A DNA stretch of 64,000 nt from an uncultured Candidatus Saccharibacteria bacterium (GCA_946408075.1 CAMJQQ010000001.1:139790-203789); one strand, 5' to 3'. Numbered from the stretch's first letter, positions 539 through 21,415 are shown. Notes: generated by a model from the letters alone, not told the origin. Translations and numbers: made by a program.

Positions 539-3500
539 TTAGCGCTTGCGGCGCCTGACGACGAAGGCTAAGAGAGCAGAGCTGACGCCCAATCCGCCGA
601 CGGATACTAAGATCTGATCGAGCGTGACTGGAATGAATGGAATCGGATAGTTTGGCTCTTCGCTCGGCATATACGGATCAATGTCGGTATCTGGCAAGCC
701 GCGCGTGTACTTATCGGTGTAGATAATATTCACCAGATGTACATCGCCCGACTCGTCGTCCGTGATAAACTCGAATTCGATTTCCGCAAAGTTTTCGTTG
801 CCGAAATCCAACTCATCAATCGGCACTGGCGTGTCCCAAATCGTACCGAACGCCGGACGGGCTGCCATCACGCTCGCCTGCTTCTCGAAGGTCAGATTTG
901 CGGAGCTGCTCGGATAAACCACGCCATCATATTCACCCCAATCGTCTGACTCGAGAATCATACCGTCGCGACGCATGCCGTAAACAATCAGGTCACTCTT
1001 GTCGAAGTCTTCGCCGTCATCTGTAAACTGCACGCGCGGCTTGTTCGAGGTCAAATATATCACCTCATCGAGCGGATAGAAAACGCCTTCATAATCATCA
1101 CGACCATCAAAGCCGGCGTAGGCCTCCGTCGGCGAAACGGAGTAGGCATAGATATCGGTGCCTTCCGGAATCGTCGGGCCAAATTCGTCGCCGACCGTAT
1201 CGTCGGGCGCGCGAGTCGGCATCGTATAGCCTCCAATGTTTTTATCTTCGACATAGGTGTTGCCCCAGATGAAGATGCGCTCCAACTTGTCATCGTTCGC
1301 AAAGGCCGCATTCTTCATGTCGGTAATCTTGTAATCAATCGTCGCCTCGACCAATTCGCCATCATCATAGAATGTTGCGCGCGGAATCGTTGCATTCGTG
1401 AATGTGCGCGGAACGTCAACCGTGCGCAGCTTTGGCATACCGCTAAATGCATAACCTTCCGAACCATCGAACAGAGCAGCGGTCAAATCGAATTCTTTGC
1501 TCGCATCGCCCATCGTCTCAAACGCGGTACCCTTGAACGCGCGCTGGCCAATCGTCACGACCTCTTCTTTGAGCTCTGGCGCCCAGTCAATCTTGCGCAA
1601 CTTTTCCGCATTCAAGAAGGCCTCCGTACCAATCGCGCGCATCGCCTTGTCGTCGCTCATGTCGACCCTCGTCAAATTTCGGCAATTTTCAAATGCGCCA
1701 TAAGAAATTCCAGGCAAATCCGTAATCGTCACCTTATTCATGCTCATATTCCAGAATTCCTGCTGACCCGCGCCGACGTTCGCGGCCAGGGCAGGGAGTG
1801 TTGCGGATTCAATAATCAGCTCATTTATCTTCGAGCCCCAGAAGAGCTGATGAATCAACTTGTTGTCGGTATTCGCAAAGCTTAAATCCGGCTTCAGCGT
1901 AACGGAATTATATTCAATGTCTTCCGGACCGGCGTTAAAAGCATCTTCGCCGATATGCGTGACCGATGCTGGAATCACAATGTCGTCCGTAATGTCGGCC
2001 GCATAGAATGCCGATTCATCAATATCGAGCAAGCCTTCGGGGAACTCGCTAATCTCCGCTTGTGCTTCTTGGAAAGCCTCAATGCCGATCGTCTTTAGGC
2101 TATCTGGCAAAACCACCTCGCCAACATCAGCCCGATAGAAAGCGTCTTCACCAATCGTTTCGAGCTCGTCAGGTAAGATAATCTGATCAATTTTCGCAGT
2201 CTGGAAAGTCGAAGGCGCAATCGTCTTCCAGTCCGTCGCACTTAAATCTACCTTCGCCGCCTCGAGTCCGTAGAAATAGGCGTAATCTTTGCCGCAATCC
2301 GTCGGATCGCCGCAGACTGATGATGCTTCAGTATAAGCATTGCCGTAAGTATCAAATCCGCCGAATGGCTCACCGGCATTCTCCGTGAAAGTAATCGTGC
2401 CTAGCTTGTGCTGGCCGTCGCCAAAACTCCAAACGAAAGTCCGGTGTGAATAATCAATCGAATATTGTGCAATGCTCGAATCATACAAATCGACATCGAT
2501 TGTTACATTATTCAAATTTGGCGTATCGAGCAGTACCTCTTCGTCCAACTGTTCAATCGTGCTCGGCAAAACTGCGTTATGAACATTGCTCTGATAGAAC
2601 GCCTGGCGCCCAATCGCCTTCAAATTCGGCAAATTGAGGTCGCCCGTAAAGCCTTTTTGTGCAAAGAAAGCATAGCTGCCAATTTCTTCGACCGTGCTCG
2701 GCAAGCTCTCGAGCGGAACCTTCTTCTTGTCCAAATCGAGCTCTGGATATTCTGGCGGCGTATGGTTCGAACTGGTATCATCGCTGACAATAGTGCCCCA
2801 AAATGCGTAATTACCAATCTTCTTCAAACCTTCCGGCAAGCTAATAGGATTCTCAATTTCCGCGCTCGTAAAGGCATAATCGCCAATCTCCGTAATCGTG
2901 CTCGGCAACTTCAGATTCTTAATCCTCGCACCATAGAAAGTACCGAGCGGAACTTTATTCCACTTCGTTGTGTCGGCCGAGAAGTTATCGACATAAATAC
3001 GGAAAAGATCCCAGTTACCAGCCGGCGGCGTCACGGATTTGCTCGAGAAGTAAAGATTCTTCAAGTGGTAGCGATATTTCATGCAGTTATTATTTTCCTT
3101 GAAGAGCCCATCCCTGACGTCCGGCCCAGACATGCCGTAATAGGTGTAGAGATTGCCGAGGAAGATATCATTCCAGCGACTGCCAAGAATTGCCTGGCCG
3201 TTCTTCTTGCCGAAAATATCGGTGTCAATGTTAATGTTTTGCAAATCGTAGTTACCAACGAACGCGCCATGCTCGATGCGCTCAATCGAATCATTGATCG
3301 TCAGTGATTTAATCTTCACGCCATAGAAGGCCGAAGGCCCAACGTAGCGCAGCTTCGGCAAATTCAAATGCGTAATTTCGAGGCCAGTATTAAATATGAA
3401 TGCCTGGGAGCCGATATACTCGATATTGGTCGGCAAATTCTCAAGGTCCAAATCTTCGCTATTCAATCTCCAGAGGAAAGCATTCGCGCCAATCCCTTTC

Positions 3501-5167
3501 AAAGTCGACGGCAGGCTCAGTTTCGTCGGTTCGGCGCCGCGCTCATCTTTACGCGTGATGCGATTGTAGCCGCTGCTGCCATAACCCATCGTGAGATATG
3601 GCGCACCAAAGGCCTGATAGCCGATAAACTCAAAACCTTCGCCGATATTAATTTCCTCCAGATATGGACCAAAATCCTCGAAATATTGTGGCGCGACGAT
3701 ATTTTTCGCACTCTGAATAATCGCCTCATCAATCGAGTTCTCGCTGCTAACCGAACTACGTTCTGGCGCGACATCATTTTCGTCATATGGCGCAACAAGA
3801 TTGAGCTTCTTGATGCTTGCCTCCGGATTCGGCGACAAATTATGTGCCGAAATATTGGCCGGGCCGTACGAAACGTAGCCACATCCGCCGCTAATCAGGA
3901 CAGAGAAAGGCATTGAAGAGTTCGACCAATCAGAATTAAAACCCTTTAGCGTCAGCGGATCGTAAGCGACCGTCACTTCTTCGAGTGGATTTGCCGCAAA
4001 AATCGCCGCGCTAACGTGCTTAATCGATTTTGGCAAATATATCTCCGTCAAATTGTTCTGCGCGAAGGCCATCATGTCGATAGAATCAATCTCTGCCAAG
4101 TCAATCGAATCAAGATGCGCATTGTAAAATGCAAGCGTTCCAATCTTGACATGTGTACCAGTGAAATCCAACGAGCCGAGATTCGTATTCGCAAAGGCTA
4201 AGTCCGTGATTTCTTCCAGTGCCGCGCCCATCGTCAGGCTCGTAATGCCGGAACCTTCGAAGGCGTACTGATCGATATGCTTGAGATTATTTGTATTTAG
4301 CGCCTGCGCCAACGCGGCCGTACCTCTAAAAGCGCCGCCATAAATCTTTTCTACGCCATCGCCGATCGTCAGACTTGTCAAACCCGCACAGCTACGACAA
4401 AAACCTTCTCCAACCTCGCTGGACTGAAAGATAATGCTTGTGACGTTTGTGTTTTCGAAGACCTGCCCACCGACGGTCTGGCTTGGCAAAATCGTAACTT
4501 CGCGATTCTGTGCATTGAGAGTAGCGTCCTTAAAGGCGCGCCAACCGAGATATTTAACCTTGTTTAGTCCATTAATCTTCAAACTGAGCCCCTCGAAAGC
4601 GCCCGCCTCGTACGAATAATCGTATCGGTAACCGTCACCGCAGCTACTCGCCGTGACGTTTTGATTGTCGGTAATTACGACGTCGTCGCCGAAACTCAAT
4701 TCGAGCTCGCCGCTATAAGAATCTAGGAGAGGTGCAAAGCTGCGAATTTGGAGCTTTGCTGCATTTGTCATGTCTATTTTTGCTAAACCATTAGGAATCG
4801 TGACCTCTGTTGGGTCGTCAAAGAGATTGTCGATAAAATATGTGTCGTAGTCGGCCAGTGACGGATCGCCAATTTTGCTGACTACCTCGCTGAATGACGG
4901 CACAACTAAGCTTGTCAGCCCAGCTGGCGCAGATTTAAAGCTAATTACTGGCGCCGTCGTCTCAATTAGCTCATTTTTGCCGCAGTAATCGTTCGGATTC
5001 GCCAAACGTGCACTCCGAATTGTTTTTACTTCGTATCCCCAGACGACACCATTGTCATCTGTAAAAGTGTTCGGCGATGCAGCATTCGCGCCTTGATAAA
5101 GTCCAAAGCACGCCAAAAAAGATGCCGCAAGAATGCCCAACTTCATTCTCTTGCTAAGCAAGTTCAT
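539..5167 (-). CDS. Giant surface protein with BspA-type leucine-rich repeats (1542 aa)
   Basis: Longest ORF in the window. It has an N-terminal signal peptide (MKLGILAASFLACFGLYQGANA) and many repeats of the pattern I..IG..AF....L..I.LP.SL..IG..AF (LRR_5/BspA style). The C-terminus is a TM helix plus an RRRKR tail. SD GGGAGAG lies upstream. Confidence 0.85.
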   Translation of the reverse strand: MNLLSKRMKLGILAASFLACFGLYQGANAASPNTFTDDNGVVWGYEVKTIRSARLANPNDYCGKNELIETTAPVISFKSAPAGLTSLVVPSFSEVVSKIGDPSLADYDTYFIDNLFDDPTEVTIPNGLAKIDMTNAAKLQIRSFAPLLDSYSGELELSFGDDVVITDNQNVTASSCGDGYRYDYSYEAGAFEGLSLKINGLNKVKYLGWRAFKDATLNAQNREVTILPSQTVGGQVFENTNVTSIIFQSSEVGEGFCRSCAGLTSLTIGDGVEKIYGGAFRGTAALAQALNTNNLKHIDQYAFEGSGITSLTMGAALEEITDLAFANTNLGSLDFTGTHVKIGTLAFYNAHLDSIDLAEIDSIDMMAFAQNNLTEIYLPKSIKHVSAAIFAANPLEEVTVAYDPLTLKGFNSDWSNSSMPFSVLISGGCGYVSYGPANISAHNLSPNPEASIKKLNLVAPYDENDVAPERSSVSSENSIDEAIIQSAKNIVAPQYFEDFGPYLEEINIGEGFEFIGYQAFGAPYLTMGYGSSGYNRITRKDERGAEPTKLSLPSTLKGIGANAFLWRLNSEDLDLENLPTNIEYIGSQAFIFNTGLEITHLNLPKLRYVGPSAFYGVKIKSLTINDSIERIEHGAFVGNYDLQNINIDTDIFGKKNGQAILGSRWNDIFLGNLYTYYGMSGPDVRDGLFKENNNCMKYRYHLKNLYFSSKSVTPPAGNWDLFRIYVDNFSADTTKWNKVPLGTFYGARIKNLKLPSTITEIGDYAFTSAEIENPISLPEGLKKIGNYAFWGTIVSDDTSSNHTPPEYPELDLDKKKVPLESLPSTVEEIGSYAFFAQKGFTGDLNLPNLKAIGRQAFYQSNVHNAVLPSTIEQLDEEVLLDTPNLNNVTIDVDLYDSSIAQYSIDYSHRTFVWSFGDGQHKLGTITFTENAGEPFGGFDTYGNAYTEASSVCGDPTDCGKDYAYFYGLEAAKVDLSATDWKTIAPSTFQTAKIDQIILPDELETIGEDAFYRADVGEVVLPDSLKTIGIEAFQEAQAEISEFPEGLLDIDESAFYAADITDDIVIPASVTHIGEDAFNAGPEDIEYNSVTLKPDLSFANTDNKLIHQLFWGSKINELIIESATLPALAANVGAGQQEFWNMSMNKVTITDLPGISYGAFENCRNLTRVDMSDDKAMRAIGTEAFLNAEKLRKIDWAPELKEEVVTIGQRAFKGTAFETMGDASKEFDLTAALFDGSEGYAFSGMPKLRTVDVPRTFTNATIPRATFYDDGELVEATIDYKITDMKNAAFANDDKLERIFIWGNTYVEDKNIGGYTMPTRAPDDTVGDEFGPTIPEGTDIYAYSVSPTEAYAGFDGRDDYEGVFYPLDEVIYLTSNKPRVQFTDDGEDFDKSDLIVYGMRRDGMILESDDWGEYDGVVYPSSSANLTFEKQASVMAARPAFGTIWDTPVPIDELDFGNENFAEIEFEFITDDESGDVHLVNIIYTDKYTRGLPDTDIDPYMPSEEPNYPIPFIPVTLDQILVSVGGLGVSSALLAFVVRRRKR

Positions 5168-5234: not shown

Positions 5235-5263
5235 TTGACAAATAAGCATAACTGTGATATAAT
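5235..5263 (+). promoter_or_regulatory. Sigma70-type promoter (TTGACA - 17 bp - TGtgaTATAAT)
   Basis: TTGACA at 5235-5240, TATAAT at 5258-5263, 17-bp spacer. It lies upstream of the 5289 CDS, which has an AAGGGG SD. Confidence 0.6.
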
Positions 5264-5288
5264 AGTAAAATATTTAAAGGGGAATCAA

Positions 5289-11870: not shown

Positions 11871-12545
11871 ATGAAATTATTGCTTCACACTTGTTGCGCG
11901 CCGTGCAGCGTCTATTGCATTAAAACTCTCCGCGCCGAAGGAATCGAGCCAACTCTCTACTGGTTCAATCCGAACATTCATCCCTATGCCGAGTACAAGG
12001 CCCGCCGCGATTGCCTCCGCGAGTACGCAAAGCTAATCAATATTGCACTCGTCGAAGATGATGCCTATGGACTGGACGAGTTCGTCTGTAATGTCGCCGA
12101 TAAGCTCACGACCCGCTGCCAAGATTACTGCTACCCAAAGCGCCTCCGCCAGGCCTTCGAATATGCCAAGCAGAACGGTTACGACGCTATTTCGACCACG
12201 CTCCTCTATAGCATCTACCAGAAGCACGATTTCATCGCGAAGCTTATGCAGATGCTTGCCGAAGAATACGGCATCGAGTTTGTCTATCGCGATTTTCGCG
12301 AGGGCTGGCAGGAAGGGCAAGACGAAGCGCGCCGCATTGGCCTCTATATGCAAAAATATTGCGGCTGCGTCTTTTCCGAAGAAGAATCCGGCCTCGGTCG
12401 TGAAGTTGGCCGCAAGCTCAAAAAGCAGGGCATTTCTCCAACCAACGCCAACGTTCGCCAGTTGATCGAGTCGAACAAGGTCGACGGCCTAGTCGTTCCG
12501 AGCAAGCTCTCCGACGCCGCTACCGAGCCGCTCGACATTGACTAA
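11871..12545 (+). CDS. queH: Epoxyqueuosine reductase QueH (DUF208)
   Basis: LLLHTCCAPCS and YMQKYCGCVFSEEE are hallmark Cys motifs. The protein carries a ~50-aa C-terminal extension. TGTTATAAT lies 7 nt upstream of the ATG. Confidence 0.85.
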   Translation: MKLLLHTCCAPCSVYCIKTLRAEGIEPTLYWFNPNIHPYAEYKARRDCLREYAKLINIALVEDDAYGLDEFVCNVADKLTTRCQDYCYPKRLRQAFEYAKQNGYDAISTTLLYSIYQKHDFIAKLMQMLAEEYGIEFVYRDFREGWQEGQDEARRIGLYMQKYCGCVFSEEESGLGREVGRKLKKQGISPTNANVRQLIESNKVDGLVVPSKLSDAATEPLDID

Positions 12546-12566
12546 AAACGCAATCTGTGGTATAAT
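12538..12566 (+). promoter_or_regulatory. Promoter of cassette 1 (TTGACT - 17 bp - TGGTATAAT)
   Basis: -35 at 12538-12543 overlaps the queH stop codon; -10 is at 12561-12566. Confidence 0.65.
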
Positions 12567-12587
12567 ATAAGTATCAGTTATACGCCT

Positions 12588-12625
12588 GCGCACCTTTAAA
12601 GTTTTACGGTTTATTACTGGTGCGC
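12588..12625 (+). promoter_or_regulatory. Conserved 5'-leader hairpin, copy 1 (7-bp stem, 24-nt loop)
   Basis: GCGCACC (12588-12594) pairs with GGTGCGC (12619-12625). The loop contains TTTTACGGTTTA. The same structure occurs at 13352-13389, where a G-U pair replaces one G-C. Confidence 0.5.
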
Positions 12626-12659
12626 TCCATCTCTCAATTGGGAAAGAAAGGTAAAAAAC

Positions 12660-13250
12660 ATGAAAGTGAGCAATGCTTGCAAGCAGGCAGATCTTAAGAC
12701 GGGTCTGTTGCGATTCTTCTGGCTTCTTCTTTGCTTTATCATGCTCTATGCATTTATGAGCATCCTGGTCATTGACCTTATTGCGTCGTGTCTCTCGTAT
12801 GAGGGATGTGATAAGACCCTTGTTTGTAGGCTTCTTGGAACTAGTTTTCAGGAGCTCTCTCATGCCTTAACGGTGGTTCTCCCTGGCATAGCCGCACTCG
12901 TGATTACCTGGGCTTACAGCATTATCTACGATGTTATGATGATTGGTAAGCTTAGGTATGATGATGCCGATCAGTGCTATATGCGACTATGCCTCAGAAG
13001 CTGGATTGCAATTTCCGCCATATTTTTTCTCCACTTCTCGGTAAAATTCCCGCCATATGATGGTGTGGCTACTTGGCTTCTTCTGATCATTGAAATTTTT
13101 GCTTCAGTATTCCAAGGGCTTGTCTTGGTCGTATTGTTCGATATATTCTTTTGCTCTGCTCTTTTTCATGCGTTTAATCATGTATACGAAAAGGCTGACG
13201 AGAAAGACGATACGATTATTGACTTCAATATCGTCGACATTAAACCGTAA
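12660..13250 (+). CDS. Four-TM membrane protein, unknown family (196 aa), paralogue of 13420..14019
   Basis: The SD GGGAAAG/AAAGG region lies upstream. There are four hydrophobic segments. It uses AGG/AGA Arg and TTA Leu codons, which are rare in the core genes here. Confidence 0.7.
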   Translation: MKVSNACKQADLKTGLLRFFWLLLCFIMLYAFMSILVIDLIASCLSYEGCDKTLVCRLLGTSFQELSHALTVVLPGIAALVITWAYSIIYDVMMIGKLRYDDADQCYMRLCLRSWIAISAIFFLHFSVKFPPYDGVATWLLLIIEIFASVFQGLVLVVLFDIFFCSALFHAFNHVYEKADEKDDTIIDFNIVDIKP

Positions 13251-13261
13251 AAACAACCAAA

Positions 13262-13284
13262 GCCCGGCGCAAGCCGGGTTTTTG
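13262..13284 (+). terminator. Intrinsic terminator of cassette 1
   Basis: CCCGGC-GCAA-GCCGGG followed by TTTTT. It is part of a 39-nt block identical to 14009-14047. Confidence 0.75.
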
Positions 13285-13304
13285 ATGCGTAGCGCTTATG
13301 CATC

Positions 13305-13333
13305 TTGACGAAAAATATAAAACGTGGTATAAT
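13305..13333 (+). promoter_or_regulatory. Promoter of cassette 2 (TTGACG - 17 bp - TGGTATAAT)
   Basis: -35 at 13305-13310, -10 at 13328-13333. Confidence 0.65.
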
Positions 13334-13351
13334 ATTCATTACACATTAGTT

Positions 13352-13389
13352 GCGCACCTTTATATTTACGGTTTTATAGACTGGTGTGC
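13352..13389 (+). promoter_or_regulatory. Conserved 5'-leader hairpin, copy 2
   Basis: GCGCACC (13352-13358) pairs with GGTGTGC (13383-13389). The loop is 24 nt and contains TTTACGGTTTT. Confidence 0.5.
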
Positions 13390-13419
13390 TTCGCCTTCGA
13401 TTGGGAAAGGAATATTCTT

Positions 13420-14019
13420 ATGAAAGCTAATGAAAATGTTAAAAAGAGCAGCTTCAAATCGGTACTGTCCAAAGCATGGAGACTTGCTGCATTCTTCGTG
13501 ATCTTCGGTATGCTCGCCTTCATCTTCTTCAATGCTCACATTCAGTATGCGGCCTATAAGTTCGGCGACCGAGATCTTCTCATATGTGATATTTTCGGAA
13601 TGAATCTCTGGAAGCTTGCTAGCAGTCTGAGACTCGCATGTTCCGTCGTAACCGCATGTGCGGCTACTTGGTCCTATGCTGCTCTTCTGGATGTGGCAAA
13701 ATTCGGTAAACGAAAACATGTAAGCGGAGAGAAGGCTCTTGAGCGCTTCGTTGTTAGATGCGTAATCGCTATAACGACTTTCTTCTTTGCGCTTTTCTTG
13801 CCGATTGCTTTGGCTAAGTCTTCCGTCTCGAATCCCGTTAATCTTCTGTGCGTCCTCCTTACAGCTCTGCTTCTTGGAACGCCTCTTGCGCTCGTCGGTG
13901 CTCATCTCTTCTATGATGTGCTTGAGGCTGTCTTTGATCGCGCCTACAAGGAAGATGGAGCTGCCGAAGAGAGACAAAACCAGGCCATCCATTTCCGCAC
14001 CGAAACACTTAAACCGTAA
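13420..14019 (+). CDS. Four-TM membrane protein, unknown family (199 aa), paralogue of 12660..13250
   Basis: I chose the ATG at 13420 because the GGGAAAGGA SD precedes it; the track ORF starts at a GTG at 13384 inside the leader hairpin. It shares ATWSYA..DV..FGK and the terminal ..LKP with copy 1. Confidence 0.7.
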   Translation: MKANENVKKSSFKSVLSKAWRLAAFFVIFGMLAFIFFNAHIQYAAYKFGDRDLLICDIFGMNLWKLASSLRLACSVVTACAATWSYAALLDVAKFGKRKHVSGEKALERFVVRCVIAITTFFFALFLPIALAKSSVSNPVNLLCVLLTALLLGTPLALVGAHLFYDVLEAVFDRAYKEDGAAEERQNQAIHFRTETLKP

Positions 14020-14029
14020 AAACAACCAA

Positions 14030-14056
14030 AGCCCGGCGCAAGCCGGGCTGCTTTTT
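14030..14056 (+). terminator. Intrinsic terminator of cassette 2
   Basis: AGCCCGGC-GCAA-GCCGGGCT followed by GCTTTTT. Confidence 0.7.
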
Positions 14057-14060
14057 ACCT

Positions 14061-14096
14061 ACAAAAATCCACCAGCGAACTGGTGGATTATTTTTT
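14061..14096. terminator. Bidirectional terminator (serves rpmE2 on the minus strand)
   Basis: AATCCACCAG-cgaa-CTGGTGGATT is flanked by an A-run and a T-run. It lies 8 nt from the rpmE2 stop codon. Confidence 0.75.
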
Positions 14097-14103
14097 CGAT
14101 AGA

Positions 14104-14433
14104 CTATTTGTCTGCCTTGGCGGCTTTCTTTTCGGCTTCTTTCTTGGCCTTTGCGACCTTGTTGCCGAGCTGAGCCTTGAGTGCGGCAGCCTTCTGAGCG
14201 CGAGCCTTGAAGCGATCGACGCGACCCTCGGTATCGATAATCTTCTCTTCGCCGGTGAAGAATGGGTGAGATGCGCTAGAAATCTGAACCTTAACTAGTG
14301 GATATTCGTTGCCATCCGTCCATTTGATCGTCTCTTCCGATTTTGCAGTCGAACGAGTAAGGAAAGAAAACTTAGCCTGCTCGTCAGCAAACACCACAAA
14401 GCGATAGTCTTTTGGTTGGATTGATTGTTTCAT
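14104..14433 (-). CDS. rpmE2: 50S ribosomal protein L31, type B (no CxxC), with a Lys/Ala-rich C-terminal tail
   Basis: [15 protein letters not shown]...[18 protein letters not shown] is the L31 type B signature. It carries an extra ~30-aa [15 protein letters not shown]-type tail. Confidence 0.85.
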
Positions 14434-14548: not shown

Positions 14549-17413
14549 ATGGATCCAAATCAAAGCAACCCAGCAGCGGCTCCTCTTGCCGCGCCGACAT
14601 CTCCTAATCCGCCAGCACAATCGCCTGCGCCAGAAGCACCAGCCCCAGCGCCAGCTCCACAATCATCAATCTATCCAACGCCGACTGATTTTACTGCGCC
14701 AGCCTCTGCGCCGGCTGTCGAGTCGTCCTTGGCGCCAACTCCGGCAACCGAGCCAAGCCCAGCTCCGTCCGAGCCGGTCGCGCCTGTTGAATCAGTTCCG
14801 GCTCCTCAAGCCGCACCGGTTGCCGAGCCTGCCCCAATCAATTCGGTTACGCAACCGCTAGATGCCTCAGCTGGCATGCCGGCCGCTGCGCCTATTGATC
14901 CAGTCGCCGCGCCAACTGAAGCGCCAACTGAAGCTCCTGTCGAGGAGGCGCCTGCGCTAGAAAATCCGTTCACGCACCCGATTACTTCCGGCTTCCCGGA
15001 GAGGCCGTCGGCTGAATTGCCGGCCAACAATTTCTTTGCGACCGCCCAGCCAGGCAGTGCAATCCCGCAGGCCGATGCCGCTGCTATGCAGGCTCAGGCT
15101 ATGCAGGATCAAGCACAAGCTCAAGCGCAAATGCAAGCTCCAGCGCCTGTCGCTTCTGCGCCGACCGAAAACAAAAAATCAAAGCTTCCACTCATTATTA
15201 TTCTCGCAGTTGTAATTCTTGGTCTTGGCGCCGGCGCCTTCTTCCTCTTGCCAAAACTTTTTGGTGGCAAGCTCGAAGATGCGAAGGTGGCCTTTATTCG
15301 CGAAAAGCGCAACGAAGGAAACTACGCGCTCTTCAATCTTAAAAACGGCAAGCAACTTACTGACTTTATCTACAAAGACAAGGGACAATTCGTTGCGGGT
15401 TATAGTATCGCGAAAGACGCCGACGACAAAGCAATCATTGTTAATGCTAAAGCCAAAACGACCGTGAGCGCAGGTAAATTCGATAGTATTACTCGTTGTG
15501 GCTCTGGTTTTGTCGGCAAAAAAGATTCGCAGTGGTCACTCCTTCTTGGCGACGGTAAGGAACTTGCTACTTTCGATTCAAATCCGGTCGTAAAGAAAGA
15601 AGATAAGCTCGCCTGTGACGATCGTGGCTACTTCGCTTTTGTCTCAGACGGCAAGGTTAATCTCTATTCCGTCAAGGGTGAATTGCTCGCCTCAAAGGAA
15701 GGTGAACTTACGCGCTTTGTTCACAATTACTATGTGTCTTCGACTGTTGAATACGAGGAAGACAAGAAAGACGACGACAACAAAAAGAAAGCTACTGGCA
15801 CGAAGAGTAGCGTAAAGAAAAGCTACCAGCTCGCCGCCGACGAGTATAGTTCCACTCTTAATCTTGATGATTATGAAATCGACCTCGATGATTACGACCT
15901 CGACTCGGCCCTCGATACTGATTACGATATCGACCTTAACGATTATATTGACGACTTTGACGAGGAGGAGCTTGACTATCGCATGGACGACCGCCTTCGC
16001 AGCAGCACCCTCGGTGACGATGACGATGATGACGATGAGGCATATATCGATAAGATGCCGGGCGCCCCATATCTTACCGTTGGTGGTACTACTTATATTC
16101 TTAGCGACGATGGTGACAAGATTGATGGTGAGTATGAAGTTGATCCAGAGGCCTACCCAGATACAATTAGTAGCGATCACAGAATTGTCATATTTGATAA
16201 GCAATACAAGACTGAAGGCATCGGCTTCGATGGCAAGTATTTCAGTGATATAAAAGATCGCTTTGGTGATTGTGCGCCCGTAATTCAAGAAGGTAAAAAA
16301 GAGTCGGTGCTACTATGCTCTTCGAGCGACTACAAGAGTGGCAAATATCTCAGAACAAACAAGGTGATTTCCGACATTGAAAACAAGGTAGCTATCGACG
16401 CAGATGCCACAATCGAAGCAATTGATTCGAAAAACTTTGTCTCCGTAAACAGCGACAAGAATAGCGTAATCTTTTATGTGAATGGCGAGAAGGGCAAGGT
16501 GCTTGACGGCGCTCATTACGATGTACAGGGCAATAGCGGTGATGGCGATGCTTATGTCATCTCGAAATCCGAGGAGACTAAACAAGAAAGCTATGGTTAT
16601 ACTATGACCACGTATAAACCAGTCAGTACGACGCTCTATTCGGCCACCGGCGAAACAATTCTGAGTGCAGAGCTCGGCGACCAAAGCAAGTCTTCCGGTC
16701 TTGGCATGATGTCTAATTACACAAGCTTCTCCTATTACGCTGACGGTTTTGTCACTAAGACTTGGATGGATGCAGATTTATCCAATATTAACGCCGAAGA
16801 TTGGCTAGATGCCTACTTGGGCGCCTTTGCTAACTTTAAGACGGAAGTATACCGTGATGGCAATAAGCTAGATTTCGGTGATATTACTATCTTCGGTAAG
16901 TATGACAAGTCTGGTTACATAGTCGCAAAAATAGATCTCGGTAAGTATATCAACCAGATGATTGATAGCCTGAAGTCTTACTCGTCAGATACAGATAATG
17001 CTGGAGATTCGGATAAAAAATCAGAGAAAGTTGATTATTTAACTTACGACATAGAACGCATTGGTCTTGTAGATTCGAATGGAAACGTCGTGTTGTCGCC
17101 AGACGATTATGACGGTTTGGCCTTGGGCGCTGAAGGGCTAGAGCTAGAAGCTTCCGACGCCTCCTCGTTGTTCGCGATAGGTGAGGATGCGGCCAGTGCT
17201 TTGCCTAATATAAGCAAAAATGGCGCCAAGTATGCCGTGGGCTTGCGCCGTAAGGACAATAAATCCTATGACATTATCAATGATGGCAAGGTAGTTTTGA
17301 ACTCCGAAAAAATCCCATATGGCACCGGCGAAGATTACTTCTATCTTAAGAACGACTCCGGCGATGAATTCTATACCTTAGACGGTAAAAAGTTTTACAC
17401 GAGGAGCGAATAA
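14549..17413 (+). CDS. Membrane-anchored protein: Pro/Ala/Gln-rich N-terminal tail, one TM helix, beta-repeat (WG-repeat-like) ectodomain with a poly-acidic insert (954 aa)
   Basis: About 210 aa of low complexity, then KKSK plus the TM helix LPLIIILAVVILGLGAGAFFLL. Repeats of the type YALFNLKNGKQLTDFIYKDKGQFVAGYSIAK follow. It is a paralogue of the two downstream genes. Confidence 0.75.
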   Translation: MDPNQSNPAAAPLAAPTSPNPPAQSPAPEAPAPAPAPQSSIYPTPTDFTAPASAPAVESSLAPTPATEPSPAPSEPVAPVESVPAPQAAPVAEPAPINSVTQPLDASAGMPAAAPIDPVAAPTEAPTEAPVEEAPALENPFTHPITSGFPERPSAELPANNFFATAQPGSAIPQADAAAMQAQAMQDQAQAQAQMQAPAPVASAPTENKKSKLPLIIILAVVILGLGAGAFFLLPKLFGGKLEDAKVAFIREKRNEGNYALFNLKNGKQLTDFIYKDKGQFVAGYSIAKDADDKAIIVNAKAKTTVSAGKFDSITRCGSGFVGKKDSQWSLLLGDGKELATFDSNPVVKKEDKLACDDRGYFAFVSDGKVNLYSVKGELLASKEGELTRFVHNYYVSSTVEYEEDKKDDDNKKKATGTKSSVKKSYQLAADEYSSTLNLDDYEIDLDDYDLDSALDTDYDIDLNDYIDDFDEEELDYRMDDRLRSSTLGDDDDDDDEAYIDKMPGAPYLTVGGTTYILSDDGDKIDGEYEVDPEAYPDTISSDHRIVIFDKQYKTEGIGFDGKYFSDIKDRFGDCAPVIQEGKKESVLLCSSSDYKSGKYLRTNKVISDIENKVAIDADATIEAIDSKNFVSVNSDKNSVIFYVNGEKGKVLDGAHYDVQGNSGDGDAYVISKSEETKQESYGYTMTTYKPVSTTLYSATGETILSAELGDQSKSSGLGMMSNYTSFSYYADGFVTKTWMDADLSNINAEDWLDAYLGAFANFKTEVYRDGNKLDFGDITIFGKYDKSGYIVAKIDLGKYINQMIDSLKSYSSDTDNAGDSDKKSEKVDYLTYDIERIGLVDSNGNVVLSPDDYDGLALGAEGLELEASDASSLFAIGEDAASALPNISKNGAKYAVGLRRKDNKSYDIINDGKVVLNSEKIPYGTGEDYFYLKNDSGDEFYTLDGKKFYTRSE

Positions 17414-19449
17414 TGAATCCAGATGAGAACAGTCCGGCTGGCGAAAATGCGCCAATTCAGCCAGCCGAGCTGAATATTACGCCGGAAAGCAACCCGAACT
17501 TCACGCCAGCCGACATACCAGAAGAGACTCCGGCGGAGCAATCCGACGCAGAACAGGCGAATCCTAGTGAAGCGCCAGCTGAGCAGCCGCTTGAATGGCT
17601 CGAATCGGCTCCGGCTCAAGCTCAGCCGGCAGCCGAGGAGCAGGCGCAGGTTGAAACAACTCAGCCTCAAGCCGACACTCAGCCAGCAGCGCCAATCAAT
17701 GGAGTGCCGCAAGCCACTCCGGTCGCCGATGCTACGACTATGCAGGCGCCAAAAGAGCGCAAAAAGAGCCCAATCGCTCTCATTGTAGTTATCCTACTCC
17801 TTTTCATTGGTGGCGGTGTCGCGGCCTGGTTCTTGCTTAATAAACCAGCCAGCAATAATAACGAGCCGGAAGCCGAACCAGAAGCGGCGGCCGACGTCAA
17901 AATCGCTAACCACTATATGTTCCTCCCGAAAGATTCATCTCGTCAGAAATTTGCTCTTTTCGATGTCGAATCCGGCGCCAAGCTCACGGATTTTGAATAT
18001 GATTCTGATAGCGAATTTATGGGCGGCTATGCGCTAGTTGAGAAAGATGAAAAACCCGCCATTATCAATGAGCAGGGCGAGCTTACGGTCGATTTTGATC
18101 AGTATAAGTCGATCAGATCTTTTGATGCTGGCCTCTATTATGCTAAAGACGAAGAAGGAAACGAGAAAATCATCTTCGGCAATGGCACGGTTCTTGCCGA
18201 TTCGGACGCGGATGGCCTCACCGATAAAATCGATTTCGACTATTCAGATAACTATATTATCTTTAATGATAGCGAAAAACACTATCAGCTCTACGATGCG
18301 ACTGGCAAAAATCTCAAGGAATTCAACTCCGAAGATGAGCCCAGCTTCGAGCGACTTAGGGGTGTTAATTATCGCAATACTTCGCCAGTTCTTCGCTATG
18401 GCGATAATGTAATTGTTTTAGGTCGGGATTACTACCGTATCGAAAAAGAGCTGGAAATCTCGTCGGATTATTCACTCGGCTCCTATTCGGAAACGCTTGG
18501 AGCAATTTCTCTCACTAAATATGACGCCGCCAATCGCGTGCAGGCGCTCTATATTGACGGCGAAATTAAGACCTATTCGGATGCTCCTTGCGACAATATT
18601 GCTATCTCTAACTATGCGACTGCCAAAGATTTTATTACTTGCTCGCGTAATGACGGCACCTTCATGATTGATAGTGACGGCTCGGTTATTGCTGATTATG
18701 ACCTCGACATCTATTCCAAGAGAGTTTTCGAGGCGCTCCCGATTATCGATTCGAAGAACTACTTGAAGCCTACCGATGACGGAATAGTTGTCTACAAGGA
18801 CGGCGAAAAGCTCAAGACCGTCCCGATTGCGAACGACGTAGAAGCTACCTTGGTTTACGGTTACGATGCGGGGCGCTATCTAATTATCGAAAAAGATGCG
18901 TCTGGCGCAGTATTATCATCGACCGTCTATAACATTGATGGCGAGAAGGAGTTCGCTCTCGATACCAAATGCAATAGCTTGGCTTACTATATTACGGAAT
19001 CCTTCGGCTTCTGCGCAAACATACCGTCCGACTACAATGGCGGAGAAGACTTGGCATATTATGTCCTAGATAAAGAAGGTAAAATCGTTTCTGATGTTTA
19101 CTATGCTGGTGAATTCCTCAATGACGAGACAAACAAACCGTCCGTAGTCGCTTTCTGTGATGAAAATCTCGAAAAATGCGATGTCTATAGCGCTGAAGGC
19201 AAAAAGATTGTTGATAGTTCGAAGTATAGCGGCTCTACGGTTGGCGCGCTTGATTCGAAGACGGTGTTCCAAGCGAAGCTCGACGATAAATACGTGCTTT
19301 ATGATATGGCCGGTAAAAAGCTCAAAACCTTCGATGGCGAACTCGACTACGAAGATCCAGGCATTCTCTACAACGAGGAAAAGGAAGTCTATACGCTTAC
19401 TGGCGAACTAATTTATAAAGTTGACGACTCCGTGGTCGAAGAAGAATAA
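17413..19449 (+). CDS. Paralogue 2 of the Pro-rich-tail/TM/beta-repeat family (678 aa)
   Basis: Its start overlaps the upstream stop codon (TAATG at 17411-17415). The architecture is the same: a ~120-aa acidic/Pro-rich tail, KERKKS plus a TM helix, then FALFDVESGAKLTDFEYDSDSEFMGGYALVEK-type repeats. Confidence 0.75.
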   Translation: MNPDENSPAGENAPIQPAELNITPESNPNFTPADIPEETPAEQSDAEQANPSEAPAEQPLEWLESAPAQAQPAAEEQAQVETTQPQADTQPAAPINGVPQATPVADATTMQAPKERKKSPIALIVVILLLFIGGGVAAWFLLNKPASNNNEPEAEPEAAADVKIANHYMFLPKDSSRQKFALFDVESGAKLTDFEYDSDSEFMGGYALVEKDEKPAIINEQGELTVDFDQYKSIRSFDAGLYYAKDEEGNEKIIFGNGTVLADSDADGLTDKIDFDYSDNYIIFNDSEKHYQLYDATGKNLKEFNSEDEPSFERLRGVNYRNTSPVLRYGDNVIVLGRDYYRIEKELEISSDYSLGSYSETLGAISLTKYDAANRVQALYIDGEIKTYSDAPCDNIAISNYATAKDFITCSRNDGTFMIDSDGSVIADYDLDIYSKRVFEALPIIDSKNYLKPTDDGIVVYKDGEKLKTVPIANDVEATLVYGYDAGRYLIIEKDASGAVLSSTVYNIDGEKEFALDTKCNSLAYYITESFGFCANIPSDYNGGEDLAYYVLDKEGKIVSDVYYAGEFLNDETNKPSVVAFCDENLEKCDVYSAEGKKIVDSSKYSGSTVGALDSKTVFQAKLDDKYVLYDMAGKKLKTFDGELDYEDPGILYNEEKEVYTLTGELIYKVDDSVVEEE

Positions 19450-19454
19450 TCAAA

Positions 19455-19480
19455 AGGCTCCGCTCGTCGGGGCCTTTTTG
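19455..19480 (+). terminator. Intrinsic terminator
   Basis: AGGCTCCG-ctcgt-CGGGGCCT (one G-U pair) followed by TTTTT. Confidence 0.6.
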
Positions 19481-19528
19481 TTGCATCTTCATAAACGTGA
19501 TATAATTAAGCATAAGTAAAATACGAAA

Positions 19529-21415
19529 ATGGTGGATTCGAATTCAAACTTACATCCGGCTCAACAACCAGGCGCCAACCAGGTGCCACTAGAGCCAGTC
19601 GCGCCATCCGCTGCGCCGCGCGCAATGAGCCCGCTCGAGGCTGCGCTTGCCATGCGTCGAAATCCTAATCCTACTCCTCAAATTCCAGAACCAGTTAATG
19701 ACCCGACCGCGCCACCAGAATTGCCGCCAGAACTCGTCGTTCCGGGCGTACCGAGCAGGAATGAAGCTCCGGCATCTCCATTAACTAAAGCTGAGCCGAA
19801 GCCGAAAATTCACCATAAACCGCGCAAGCGCCGCATTCAGCACGACGCAGTTAAGCGTCCGGTTGCTCGCAAGAAGTGTTTCACGAAAGAATCCTTCAAG
19901 CGTTATGCGGTTATTGGCAGCATCACACTTGCCGCGTCAATTATTGTCGCTCTCGCACTCTCGTTCTTCACGAACGGCCCGGCCGTAGCACACAAAGCGA
20001 ACCCGTTTGATACGAATGCTTTCTTTGTCCGTGAACGCCAGGACGCTGGCTATTATGCGCTCTATGGCCGCGATGGCAAGAAATACACTGAGTTTCAGAT
20101 TGCGCGCGCCTATGAGTTTTTCGATGGCTACGCACTCATCCGCAACACTTCTGGTGAATATGGCTTGATTGCGGACAATGGTCGCATGTCGGTGAAATAT
20201 GATACCTACGACAAAATCGTTTCTCGCGGCCCTGTCTATATCGCTAGTAAAAATGACAAGGACTACAGAATAATCCTCGGTAATGGTAAGGTTATTGCTA
20301 AGTCCGACTATGAAAACACCTCGGATTTAATCACGAACACAAAAACTCCATATTTCATCTACAAAGAACGCGAAAACAAATATGTAATCTATAATGCTCG
20401 CGGCGATAAAATGCGCACGATCGAGAGCAATGAGCGTCCAGTTATCGACTCTGCCTCAAATCATGATTTCGCTCTCATTACCTATGATAGTCATGCCTTA
20501 ATCTTTAAAGGTGACAGCTATGAACTCGTCGGCGAAACCGATTTCAAGGATGGCTACGCTGTCTCGGATTATAGCTATGATCTGAGCTTAATTGAGCTCA
20601 AGAGTGCTGAAAGCACGGCCTTCATTGTGAGTGGTACTTTTCGCGATGATTATTCTGCGTGTAAGCTAATTGAGCTTCACAATGATGAGAAGCTCTCGCG
20701 TCATTACGCCACTTGTAAGCAAGATGATGGTGTTCATCTTATTGGTAAAGATGGCACAGTCGCAATTTCGCCAATCCCTTCGAATCGCATTTACTATACA
20801 CCGACTGATTTTGCCATGCTAGAAAATGGTAAAATTACCATCTATGTGAATGGTGAAAGCGTTAAAACTATGAGCGATGTTGTTGGTCTATATGATGCCG
20901 AAGGTGCCTACTATGTCGAGCATCTTGATCCAATCGGAAATTACCATTATTCCATCTTCTCGCTCAAGGGCGAACAGATCTTCACGGATTCGCTTGCGTA
21001 TGGTGTTCGCGGCGTAGCTGACGAGAATCGCGCAGTCATTAGCTATGGCGGTAGCTATGGCGACCATGTCGTAATGGCAAAGAAGGGCGCTTTATCCGAT
21101 GGTTATCACAAAATCTATATCGCCAACAGCAATCTGTATGTCGGCGAAAGTGCTGGCCGCTTTACGGTTTTGAACGGCAGTGGCAAAACCATCACAAATC
21201 GCGAATATTCAGACGCTGAGCTCAAAGATGACGGTTCAGTTGTTGCTTATTACGACAATAAAATCGATTATTATAGCGCCGACGGTAAGCTTCGTCTCAC
21301 GGGTCTTAATGCGCGTGGCTATGCCTATTCGTCTAACGAGTATATCGCGCAACGCGACGATTCGGGCAAGTATATATATTACCTACTTGACGGACGCCAA
21401 TTCGCCGAAAACTAA
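19529..21415 (+). CDS. Paralogue 3 of the Pro-rich-tail/TM/beta-repeat family (628 aa)
   Basis: It has its own TGATATAAT promoter (19498-19506). The tail is Pro-rich and basic, followed by the TM helix AVIGSITLAASIIVALALSFF and YALYGRDGKKYTEFQIARAYEFFDGYALIRN-type repeats. Confidence 0.75.
   Translation: MVDSNSNLHPAQQPGANQVPLEPVAPSAAPRAMSPLEAALAMRRNPNPTPQIPEPVNDPTAPPELPPELVVPGVPSRNEAPASPLTKAEPKPKIHHKPRKRRIQHDAVKRPVARKKCFTKESFKRYAVIGSITLAASIIVALALSFFTNGPAVAHKANPFDTNAFFVRERQDAGYYALYGRDGKKYTEFQIARAYEFFDGYALIRNTSGEYGLIADNGRMSVKYDTYDKIVSRGPVYIASKNDKDYRIILGNGKVIAKSDYENTSDLITNTKTPYFIYKERENKYVIYNARGDKMRTIESNERPVIDSASNHDFALITYDSHALIFKGDSYELVGETDFKDGYAVSDYSYDLSLIELKSAESTAFIVSGTFRDDYSACKLIELHNDEKLSRHYATCKQDDGVHLIGKDGTVAISPIPSNRIYYTPTDFAMLENGKITIYVNGESVKTMSDVVGLYDAEGAYYVEHLDPIGNYHYSIFSLKGEQIFTDSLAYGVRGVADENRAVISYGGSYGDHVVMAKKGALSDGYHKIYIANSNLYVGESAGRFTVLNGSGKTITNREYSDAELKDDGSVVAYYDNKIDYYSADGKLRLTGLNARGYAYSSNEYIAQRDDSGKYIYYLLDGRQFAEN

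Follow-up and report, generated by a model that had tools for sequence, protein, structure and literature searches.

Organisation of the locus

A stretch of 64,000 nucleotides (nt) from an uncultured Candidatus Saccharibacteria bacterium (GCA_946408075.1, CAMJQQ010000001.1:139790-203789; hereafter the window, with positions counted from its first letter) was analysed computationally in order to investigate two tandem transcription units, termed cassettes 1 and 2, that occupy the interval between queH and rpmE2 (12538-13285 and 13305-14056). Each unit consists of a near-consensus promoter, a leader of roughly 85 nt with a hairpin, a gene for a four-helix membrane protein of about 200 amino acids (aa) and a terminator. 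A short element in the loop of this hairpin is matched by its reverse complement at the 3' end of the same unit, and both elements are conserved in related genomes independently of reading frame and protein sequence. The cassettes are therefore described here as a candidate 5'-3' mRNA pairing module around orphan membrane-protein genes, a kind of regulation that is known but rare, and this module is absent from Rfam.

The features of the interval and its flanks are collated below (+, strand shown; -, opposite strand; CDS, coding sequence).

11871-12545, +: queH (epoxyqueuosine reductase), upstream flank; Pfam PF02677, E = 8.5e-56
12538-12566, +: predicted cassette 1 promoter, TTGACT-17-TATAAT with extended TG; promoter scan, 11/12 to the sigma-70 consensus
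12573-12659, +: cassette 1 leader, about 87 nt, with its start placed from the -10 box
12588-12625, +: cassette 1 leader hairpin, 7-bp stem GCGCACC/GGTGCGC (12588-12594/12619-12625) and 24-nt loop; covariance model R1, 59.6 bits
12602-12613, +: cassette 1 loop core TTTTACGGTTTA, complementary to 13241-13252 and 14010-14021 (perfect 12-nt inverted repeats I8 and I9)
12660-13250, +: cassette 1 CDS, 196-aa orphan protein with about four predicted transmembrane helices; translation, hydrophobicity and searches
13240-13278, +: 39-nt block, cassette 1 copy (3' motif, spacer and terminator stem-loop), identical to 14009-14047; repeat family D3
13241-13252, +: cassette 1 3' motif TAAACCGTAAAA, across the Lys-Pro-stop codons; inverted repeat, kept in three stop-codon contexts
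13259-13283, +: cassette 1 terminator AAAG-CCCGGC-GCAA-GCCGGG-TTTTT; read from the sequence, whole-transcript fold
13305-13333, +: predicted cassette 2 promoter, TTGACG-17-TATAAT with extended TG; promoter scan, 11/12 to the sigma-70 consensus
13352-13389, +: cassette 2 leader hairpin, GCGCACC/GGTGTGC (13352-13358/13383-13389) with one G-U pair and 24-nt loop; R1, 48.7 bits
13365-13374, +: cassette 2 loop core TTTACGGTTT; inverted-repeat and 10-mer counts, energetics
13420-14019, +: cassette 2 CDS, 199-aa paralogue, 23% identical to cassette 1; BLASTP E = 3e-15
14009-14047, +: 39-nt block, cassette 2 copy, with the 3' motif core at 14011-14020; repeat family D3, 10-mer count
14030-14056, +: cassette 2 terminator, 8-bp stem, GCAA loop and tail GCTTTTT; terminator scan
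14066-14095, no strand assigned: hairpin of a bidirectional terminator, separating cassette 2 from the convergent rpmE2; terminator scan
14104-14433, -: rpmE2 (L31 type B), downstream flank; Pfam PF01197, E = 1.3e-21

The promoter and terminator of each unit are consensus predictions; the terminator scan listed a + strand site for cassette 2 only, and the terminator of cassette 1 was read from the sequence. The initial annotation of this locus, made from the sequence alone, had described two tandem units with near-consensus promoters, GCAA-loop terminators, an identical 39-nt block at the two 3' ends and strongly diverged four-helix paralogues, and all of these were recovered. The same holds for its 7-bp stem closing a 24-nt loop, a pattern that matched twice in the window and never in 100 shuffled sequences, and for the shared loop core TTTACGGTTT, a 10-mer present in both leader loops.

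The final base of the cassette 1 -35 hexamer lies within the queH stop codon TAA (12543-12545). An open reading frame (ORF) of 219 aa on the opposite strand (13366-14025, -) runs antisense through all of cassette 2 and is longer than the sense ORF; it is very likely spurious, as promoter, Shine-Dalgarno (SD) sequence, terminator and paralogy favour the + strand gene.

Complementarity between leader loop and 3' end

The loop core TTTACGGTTT recurs in reverse complement as AAACCGTAAA within the conserved 3' block, a relationship that had not been part of the initial annotation and was added by the present analysis. The resulting perfect inverted repeat spans 12 nt in cassette 1 (12602-12613 with 13241-13252) and 10 nt in cassette 2. 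Five occurrences of the 10-mer were counted in the window, against 0.16 expected: two in the leader loops (+), two at the 3' ends (-), and a fifth, inside the CDS of a 628-aa protein, that looks like a chance occurrence.

For comparison, the 90 nt upstream of each of 51 crudely called genes of the window were matched against the 3' end of that gene, and the length of the longest perfect complement was recorded. The median was 6 nt and the next best gene reached 9 nt, against 12 and 10 nt for the cassettes. Within the 64 kb, the only complementary targets of the 3' motif were the two cassette leaders and one chance-looking intragenic match. Complementary segments beyond chance within one transcription unit, as are characteristic of pairing between 5' and 3' untranslated regions (UTRs), are thus present, with 10-14 nt of perfect complement.

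Conservation in related loci

QueH homologues assign the window to Candidatus Saccharibacteria. Related loci (designated by L numbers) were reached by way of these homologues and, more productively, through an exact L31 protein common to several lineages; some of the contigs originate from metagenomes of cattle or rumen. Complete cassettes numbered twelve and represented eight distinct leader/3' combinations (L015, L137, L156, L160, L162-L167 and the window). Both motifs were found in all of them, 639-693 nt apart and in the same orientation relative to promoter and queH.

Two cassette types can be distinguished. The window type comprises cassettes 1 and 2 and L164/L166, whose protein is 35-39% identical to that of cassette 1; the second type comprises L015, L137, L156 and their relatives, with proteins 69-78% identical among themselves. 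Between the types no similarity of the proteins was detectable (hhalign probability 0.5-1.7%), although both have the same length and helix layout and carry a T-W/F-x-Y patch at an equivalent place.

The position of the stop codon relative to the 3' motif differs among these cassettes. In the window, AAA-CCG-TAA within the motif encodes Lys-Pro-stop; in L013, L164 and L166 translation ends at the TAA of TAAACCG; in second-type cassettes the stop precedes the motif by 21-23 nt. With the stop codon in three positions, the constraint acts on the nucleotides rather than on the amino acids.

Between the window and the second-type lineages, synonymous sites of queH are saturated (synonymous divergence, dS, 1.7), and the leaders are about 68% identical. 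Conservation is limited to both promoter hexamers, to GCGCAC and the core, and to the 3' arm of the stem. Within the second type, the comparison of L015 with L160 showed CCAAACCGTAAA (12 nt) and the terminator stem unchanged inside an otherwise divergent island in which the upstream 3' UTR, the spacer (9-13 nt) and the terminator loop vary. Purifying selection thus acts separately on the leader core and on the 3' motif. The proposal of the initial annotation that the cassette ends are under a constraint that the proteins lack is borne out, since leader islands and 3' motif outlast the saturation of queH and the proteins can no longer be aligned.

In an alignment of the 3' ends (A7), AAACCGTAAA was invariant and was followed by a variable spacer of 7-13 nt, a terminator hairpin whose stem is conserved and whose loop varies, and a U tract. 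The motif itself is predicted to be single-stranded and lies 7-13 nt before this hairpin; a conserved seed directly upstream of an intrinsic terminator is a hallmark of small RNAs (sRNAs) derived from 3' UTRs. An independent sRNA promoter inside the 3' end of the CDS was considered and rejected, the weak TTGACT...TAAACC in cassette 1 being confined to that cassette and not conserved.

Only two one-sided changes were observed in the core helix and its first flanking pair, and both give G-U: an A to G in the leader core of L164, and an A to G on the 3' side of L015 in the first flanking pair. These changes suggest an element acting as RNA, although not significantly. Complementarity beyond the core is lineage-specific yet always present, with shifts in register: L164 and L166 show 14 contiguous pairs from loop to tail, perfect in L166, and in the second type 12 bp are joined by AUGC/GCAU (GUAU in L137), with up to 27 pairs in all.

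Leader hairpin

Each leader is predicted to form a single hairpin with a loop of 10-24 nt, and the core is kept in the apical loop in every case though the stems differ in sequence. The leaders of cassette 1 and L166 have a 7-bp stem and a 24-nt loop. In cassette 2, an additional inner 6-bp stem (UUUAUA/UAUAGA) leaves exactly the 10-nt core as loop, and second-type leaders combine 6 bp with an inner UUUUGUA/UGCAAAA stem and a 13-nt loop. Four of the eight stem pairs never vary, and the one compensatory change seen amounts to a single split between the cassette types; stem covariation was not above that of shuffled alignments, of which 43 in 500 reached the observed score. Of the two properties looked for in related genomes following the initial annotation, conservation of the leader was thus found (its islands are kept between the cassette types) and structure-preserving covariation was not.

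Directly 3' of the hairpin lies a CUCC or CCUCC tract that is predicted to be able to pair with the SD sequence. The complementarity between CCUUU and AAAGG that the initial annotation had pointed out is present in window-type leaders and absent from the second type, where CCUCC follows the stem and the SD sequence is AGGAGG, so that the switch built on this particular pair does not carry over to the second cassette type.

A comparison of the leaders with Rfam 15 (cmscan), which had been suggested at the outset, gave no match even at E = 10, and no gathering-score match was found in the whole window. Covariance model R1, searched against the 64-kb window and 22 related loci, matched the cassette leaders only; the element is therefore specific in cis and does not mark a regulon. 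A pattern scan for the leader in 185,579 species genomes returned four matches, all due to chance and without closing stem, so that the source genome is evidently no species representative; a scan of viral contigs gave 96 chance matches. Among 43 matches in JGI metagenomes, three were real; many of the false metagenome matches represent one conserved coding motif, putatively that of an aminotransferase.

One phage contig from IMG/VR (L076, 5680-5716) carries a hairpin GGCGCAC-GGAAAACCTTTACGGTTTCTCT-GTGCGCC between a -10-like box, TGGTACAAT, and an SD sequence with ATG. An inner AAACC/GGTTT stem sequesters the core of this hairpin, which scores only 12.8 bits with R1; the likeness is probably a coincidence.

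Folding and energetics

After subtraction of opening costs of 0.1-2.5 kcal/mol, the core duplex was calculated to contribute a net -9 to -13 kcal/mol. For the core of cassette 1, the opening cost was 1.1 kcal/mol and the net pairing energy -12.3 kcal/mol. Both elements are thus predicted to be accessible and their pairing to be energetically favourable. In whole-transcript folds, the 5'-3' helix was part of the minimum-energy structure in eight of nine transcripts, with pair probabilities of 0.6-1.0. The programs RNAcofold and duplexfold were rejected as sources of evidence for pairing, since a loop-to-tail helix is a pseudoknot to both and duplexfold was found to be non-discriminating.

Divergence and exchange of the cassettes

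The content of the queH-rpmE2 interval varies among relatives. It is empty in L017 and L169, holds unrelated genes in L006-L009, L157-L159 and L170, one cassette in L013/L164/L166 and in L015 and its relatives, and two cassettes in the window. Where no cassette is present, the interval either is empty or contains a 255-aa minus-strand gene, a 174-aa HIT-like gene with an ORF of 35 aa, or three to four unrelated genes; the motif pair is absent from all of these loci (L006-L009, L017, L157-L159, L169 and L170).

Sliding identity between L015 and L160 was 88-100% across queH, promoter and leader, dropped to 60-85% exactly at the ATG and throughout CDS and 3' UTR, and recovered to 98-100% just upstream of and across rpmE2. 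The corresponding dS values were 1.35 for the cassette gene, 0.32 for queH and 0.04 for rpmE2, and the ratio of nonsynonymous to synonymous divergence (dN/dS) in the cassette was about 0.1, with no sign of whole-gene positive selection. The coding alleles are therefore old and subject to purifying selection, and they are exchanged into a backbone that is more uniform. The comparison of coding divergence with that of the flanks, as proposed with the initial annotation, thus yielded an excess of synonymous divergence in the coding region together with constraint on the protein.

It is proposed that the protein genes of the window represent alleles or paralogues of long standing and deep divergence, which are exchanged at a variable hotspot between queH and rpmE2. 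A trace of recombination is seen in L164/L166, where the single cassette is preceded by a spacer homologous to the one between cassettes 1 and 2 of the window. The gene family behaves like a diversifying surface or immunity locus, with old alleles, copy-number change and an exchange hotspot beside rpmE2, whose conservation is unusual.

The identity of the 39-nt blocks cannot be due to selection alone, because spacer and terminator loop within the block vary freely in orthologous cassettes and because the coding sequences of cassettes 1 and 2 are saturated. Gene conversion between the tandem copies, or unequal crossover, accounts for it best; the initial annotation had offered gene conversion for the cassette ends in general, and it explains this 39-nt identity only. 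The spacer homology of L164/L166 and the resemblances at the queH ends of the window and of L169, described below, agree with such recombination at the boundaries.

Three further observations concern the ends of the interval. The end of queH, GACATTGACTAAAAAC, is similar to the end of cassette 1, GACATTAAACCGTAAAAAC (12530-12550 and 13233-13255), which suggests that the array grew by recombination at that junction. In the cassette-less L169 (reverse complement, about 470-570), the queH stop lies in CGGTAAAAACCAAAGGC...AAACCCGACACAAGCCGGGTTT, which resembles the cassette 3' block CCGTAAAAACAACCAAAGCCCGGCGCAAGCCGGG and could represent either the scar of a deletion or an ancestral terminator of queH. 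The rpmE2 genes of the window, L015, L160 and L164 encode an identical protein with a dS of only 0.04-0.17, compared with 0.3-1.8 for the neighbouring queH, and the high identity starts just upstream of the rpmE2 coding region and continues past it; either very strong synonymous or RNA-level constraint or a recent spread by recombination would produce this pattern.

Proposed pairing and alternative explanations

The leader loop may pair with the 3' end of its own mRNA, either in cis or through a 3' fragment; we give this interpretation an even chance. It is the simplest account because the two elements are complementary, independently constrained, confined to the cassettes and predicted to be single-stranded at the ends of the unit. 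According to this proposal, UUUACGGUUU would be displayed in the apical loop of the leader hairpin and would base-pair with AAACCGUAAA, located 7-13 nt upstream of the terminator hairpin. In the cis variant, pairing within one mRNA would produce a closed-loop or fold-back form; in the trans variant, a stable 3'-terminal fragment would pair with the leaders of new transcripts, that of the paralogous cassette included. The loop-tail duplex would set translation or decay of the mRNA, or both. As the pyrimidine tract (CUCC/CCUCC) after the hairpin could sequester the SD sequence, a switch between hairpin and closed loop could gate translation, and our guess is that the full-length form would be the repressed one. 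The idea of the initial annotation that an sRNA binds the leader comes close to this proposal, with the difference that the partner suggested here is the 3' end of the mRNA itself.

A wider claim, namely that such a hok-like closed-loop lock is an obligatory and portable control module of a hypervariable orphan membrane-protein gene wherever Saccharibacteria swap its alleles, is put forward tentatively and below an even chance. If it is true, the regulatory frame of the cassette has been conserved far longer than its protein, and the lock would be a first for the Candidate Phyla Radiation, from which we know of no earlier conserved post-transcriptional cis element. For reduced epibiotic bacteria, Saccharibacteria among them, this level of control is, as far as we are aware, almost unexplored. 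We know of only a handful of bacterial 5'-3' UTR interactions, all found experimentally; the present candidate was found from sequence alone, and its pairing core of 10-14 nt is small enough for compensatory mutation.

Several observations weigh against pairing of the mRNA ends. Nine of the ten core pairs are invariant, covariation measures do not exceed those of shuffled alignments, and there is no compensatory change. Peripheral changes are uncompensated, in that cassette 2 lacks the two outer pairs and L167 has GCAC for GCAU. Two arms that are invariant at saturating divergence would fit sequence-specific recognition, for instance of double-stranded DNA, equally well. The phylogenetic spread is narrow, being limited to a few rumen Saccharibacteria lineages with an identical L31 protein. 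The start and the 3' end of the transcript, and hence the presence of both elements on one RNA, are inferred from predicted signals. In the whole-transcript fold of cassette 1 of the window, the helix has a probability of only 0.14, and duplexfold rates the leader no better against the 3' end than against random CDS windows, so that energies by themselves do not single out the 3' end. Finally, a helix of 10-14 bp between the tail and a closed hairpin loop is topologically strained and needs opening of the stem.

The motifs may instead be a DNA-level inverted repeat bound by one protein (a recombinase or transposase, or a bridging repressor), with the RNA complementarity as a by-product. This is considered unlikely. 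It would account for arms that are nearly invariant and show no double compensatory change where synonymous sites are saturated, and it would suit an interval that gains and loses its content and holds zero, one or two cassettes or unrelated genes. Inverted repeats of 10-14 bp do lie at both cassette ends, as would be expected of a mobile cassette; the cassette-less L169 retains its relic of the 3' block at the queH stop, the end of queH resembles that of cassette 1, and the inverted 3' block is loosely like the leader beyond the core (TGCGC..CTTT..core). However, Pfam scans of the cassette proteins and ten neighbours (539-24421) revealed no recombinase, transposase or DNA-binding regulator. 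All 12 complete cassettes share one orientation and every instance lies between queH and rpmE2, with only chance matches elsewhere in the genome and metagenome pattern scans; the promoter lies outside the repeat, and target-site duplications were not seen. The leader copy, moreover, is always placed in a hairpin loop with differing stems, whereas a site in duplex DNA would not need a hairpin, and the only two one-sided changes in the core helix and first flanking pair are compatible with G-U. Should the repeat act at the DNA level after all, it would constitute a novel type of cassette border, in a phylum from which few mobile elements are known.

Two other explanations treat the complementarity as incidental or as a relic. 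The initial annotation had favoured an orphan riboswitch or a leader that binds a protein or sRNA, which would make the leader a stand-alone element for a ligand, protein or trans-acting sRNA and would attribute the conservation of the 3' end to the terminator and to gene conversion. The islands shared between the leaders of both types, the hairpin predicted in all of them and the pyrimidine tract that could pair with the SD sequence agree with such an element, and the 39-nt identity does resemble gene conversion. It is nevertheless highly improbable: the leader lacks an Rfam match even at the most permissive threshold used, its stem lacks covariation, and a single hairpin with neither multi-helix junction nor conserved internal bulges is too simple for known aptamers. 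The ten invariant loop nucleotides are, moreover, exactly those complementary to the 3' motif. In single-cassette lineages this motif forms a conserved island in a divergent 3' UTR, and tandem gene conversion cannot act there because only one cassette is present. That the ends have no dedicated function, but are homology arms plus promoter and terminator signals of allele swaps, with the 10-mers left over from an ancient inverted duplication, is likewise quite unlikely. Such swaps are in keeping with the identity of L015 and L160, which drops exactly at the ATG and recovers just upstream of the rpmE2 coding region, and with a cassette dS about four times that of queH at a dN/dS of about 0.1, the signature of exchanged old alleles; second-type leaders (88-98% identity) are also no more alike than the backbone. 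Yet the 3' motif is unchanged although it lies inside the divergent island and outside the conserved arm, and core and stem persist between the types at about 68% leader identity and a saturated backbone, where a neutral relic would have decayed.

Known types of element were also compared with the cassettes and rejected. Inspection revealed no 11-6-11 dyad of a Xer/dif-like site, which had been considered because GGTGCGC resembles the start of E. coli dif. The target of a diversity-generating retroelement does not apply, as the window contains neither template/variable direct repeats nor a reverse transcriptase and the divergence spans the whole protein. Integron attC sites were dismissed because the cassettes carry their own promoters, and IS200/605 ends because there is no TnpA and the end hairpins are dissimilar. 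A type I toxin-antitoxin system (hok/sok-like, with a toxin under 60 aa) is at odds with proteins of 196-205 aa, and no strong antisense promoter was found; a candidate in the second-type leader, TTGGTT-17-TATATT, is present in L015 and not in L156.

Comparison with known systems

One of the closest known arrangements is that of Bacillus subtilis hbs, in which a long-range helix of about 14 bp joins the structured 5' UTR to a 3'-UTR segment beside the terminator (Braun, Durand and Condon 2017, PMC5737220); this helix overlaps an RNase Y site and modulates cleavage (PMC5737220). As in hbs, the cassettes would yield short monocistronic mRNAs with Gram-positive-type promoter and SD sequence, and their complement of 10-14 bp lies 7-13 nt before the terminator. 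In contrast to hbs, the 5' partner is a hairpin loop, the sequences are unrelated, and the cassette pairing is a prediction from sequence.

In hok mRNA, the tac/fbi pairing joins the 5' and 3' ends of a full-length mRNA for a membrane protein, and the SD sequence is sequestered by an upstream complementary box (PMC9841398). The cassettes likewise encode membrane proteins, and their CUCC/CCUCC tract after the hairpin is predicted to be able to pair with the SD sequence. Hok toxins are, however, about 50 aa long, against 196-205 aa, and no Sok-like antisense promoter was found; the tac/fbi pairing also has covariation support, which the cassette motif pair lacks. In the 5'-3' UTR pairing of Staphylococcus aureus icaR, a 3' UCCCCUG motif pairs directly with the SD sequence and makes a substrate for RNase III (PMC3868564). 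The 5' partner in the cassettes lies about 35-40 nt upstream of the SD sequence, and their 3' UTRs are under 70 nt long, compared with over 100 nt in icaR.

Small RNAs derived from 3' UTRs carry a conserved seed just upstream of the parental terminator, and the known examples act on other mRNAs. The 3' block of the cassettes has the same composition (an invariant, single-stranded seed of 10-12 nt, spacer, terminator stem and U tract), whereas the only complementary targets found for it in the 64 kb are the leaders of the cassette itself and of its paralogue. With the riboswitches and cis-regulatory leaders of Rfam, the cassette leaders share the position of a conserved structured element between promoter and SD sequence; in contrast to those families, they have no family match and form a single hairpin, and their conserved nucleotides are explained by pairing with the 3' end.

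Gene modules flanked by inverted recombination sites are represented by Xer-dependent pdif modules and by cassettes bounded by terminal inverted repeats. These resemble the present cassettes in that a single gene lies between short inverted repeats and varies in presence and copy number. They differ in that no 11-6-11 Xer-type architecture was seen and no recombinase was found among the scanned neighbours, and in that the present cassettes occupy one genomic location in one orientation with the promoter outside the repeat.

Encoded proteins

Proteins of the cassette family are 196-205 aa long. Word-indexed searches with both cassette proteins returned the query itself only (singletons), and an exhaustive profile search covering 1.84 billion representatives yielded a single true relative (P0123), a second match (P0124) being a false one due to low complexity. 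No family match was obtained in Pfam, PHROGs, PADLOC or NCBIfam. Structure prediction, as proposed with the initial annotation, did not lead to a family either: the AlphaFold model is a bundle of long helices with a mean confidence (pLDDT) of 66, and comparison with the PDB gave no fold match with E below 3.

The codon bias that had been described as a sign of accessory genes was confirmed in part. The Arg codons AGA/AGG are enriched in the cassettes (3/5 and 4/9, compared with 0-1 per core gene); TTA is not enriched among the Leu codons (1/28 and 0/27). The GC content at third codon positions is lower in the cassettes (0.48) than in core genes (0.54-0.67).

Other features of the window

A promoter at 5235-5265 (TTGACAAATAAGCATAACTGTGATATAAT) is nearly the same as the promoter of the second-type cassette of L015 (TTGACAAAAAGCATAAGTTGTGATATAAT). 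It was considered as a third promoter-like repeat and set aside as merely a similar strong promoter, followed by a short leader without hairpin and by a gene for a small, secreted-looking protein.

Beyond rpmE2, three large genes follow in a row (14549-21415), encoding proteins of 954, 678 and 628 aa. The 954-aa protein has a Pro/Ala-rich N-terminus and the 678-aa protein a sub-threshold match to WG repeats. Between relatives whose rpmE2 is about 97% identical, the three proteins are 71-74% identical or cannot be aligned; they are probably fast-evolving surface proteins. On the opposite strand at 539-5167, a gene encodes a protein of 1,542 aa with eight stretches of BspA-type leucine-rich repeats (Pfam PF13306, E = 5.8e-99), and the internal DNA repeats of family D1 fall within this gene.

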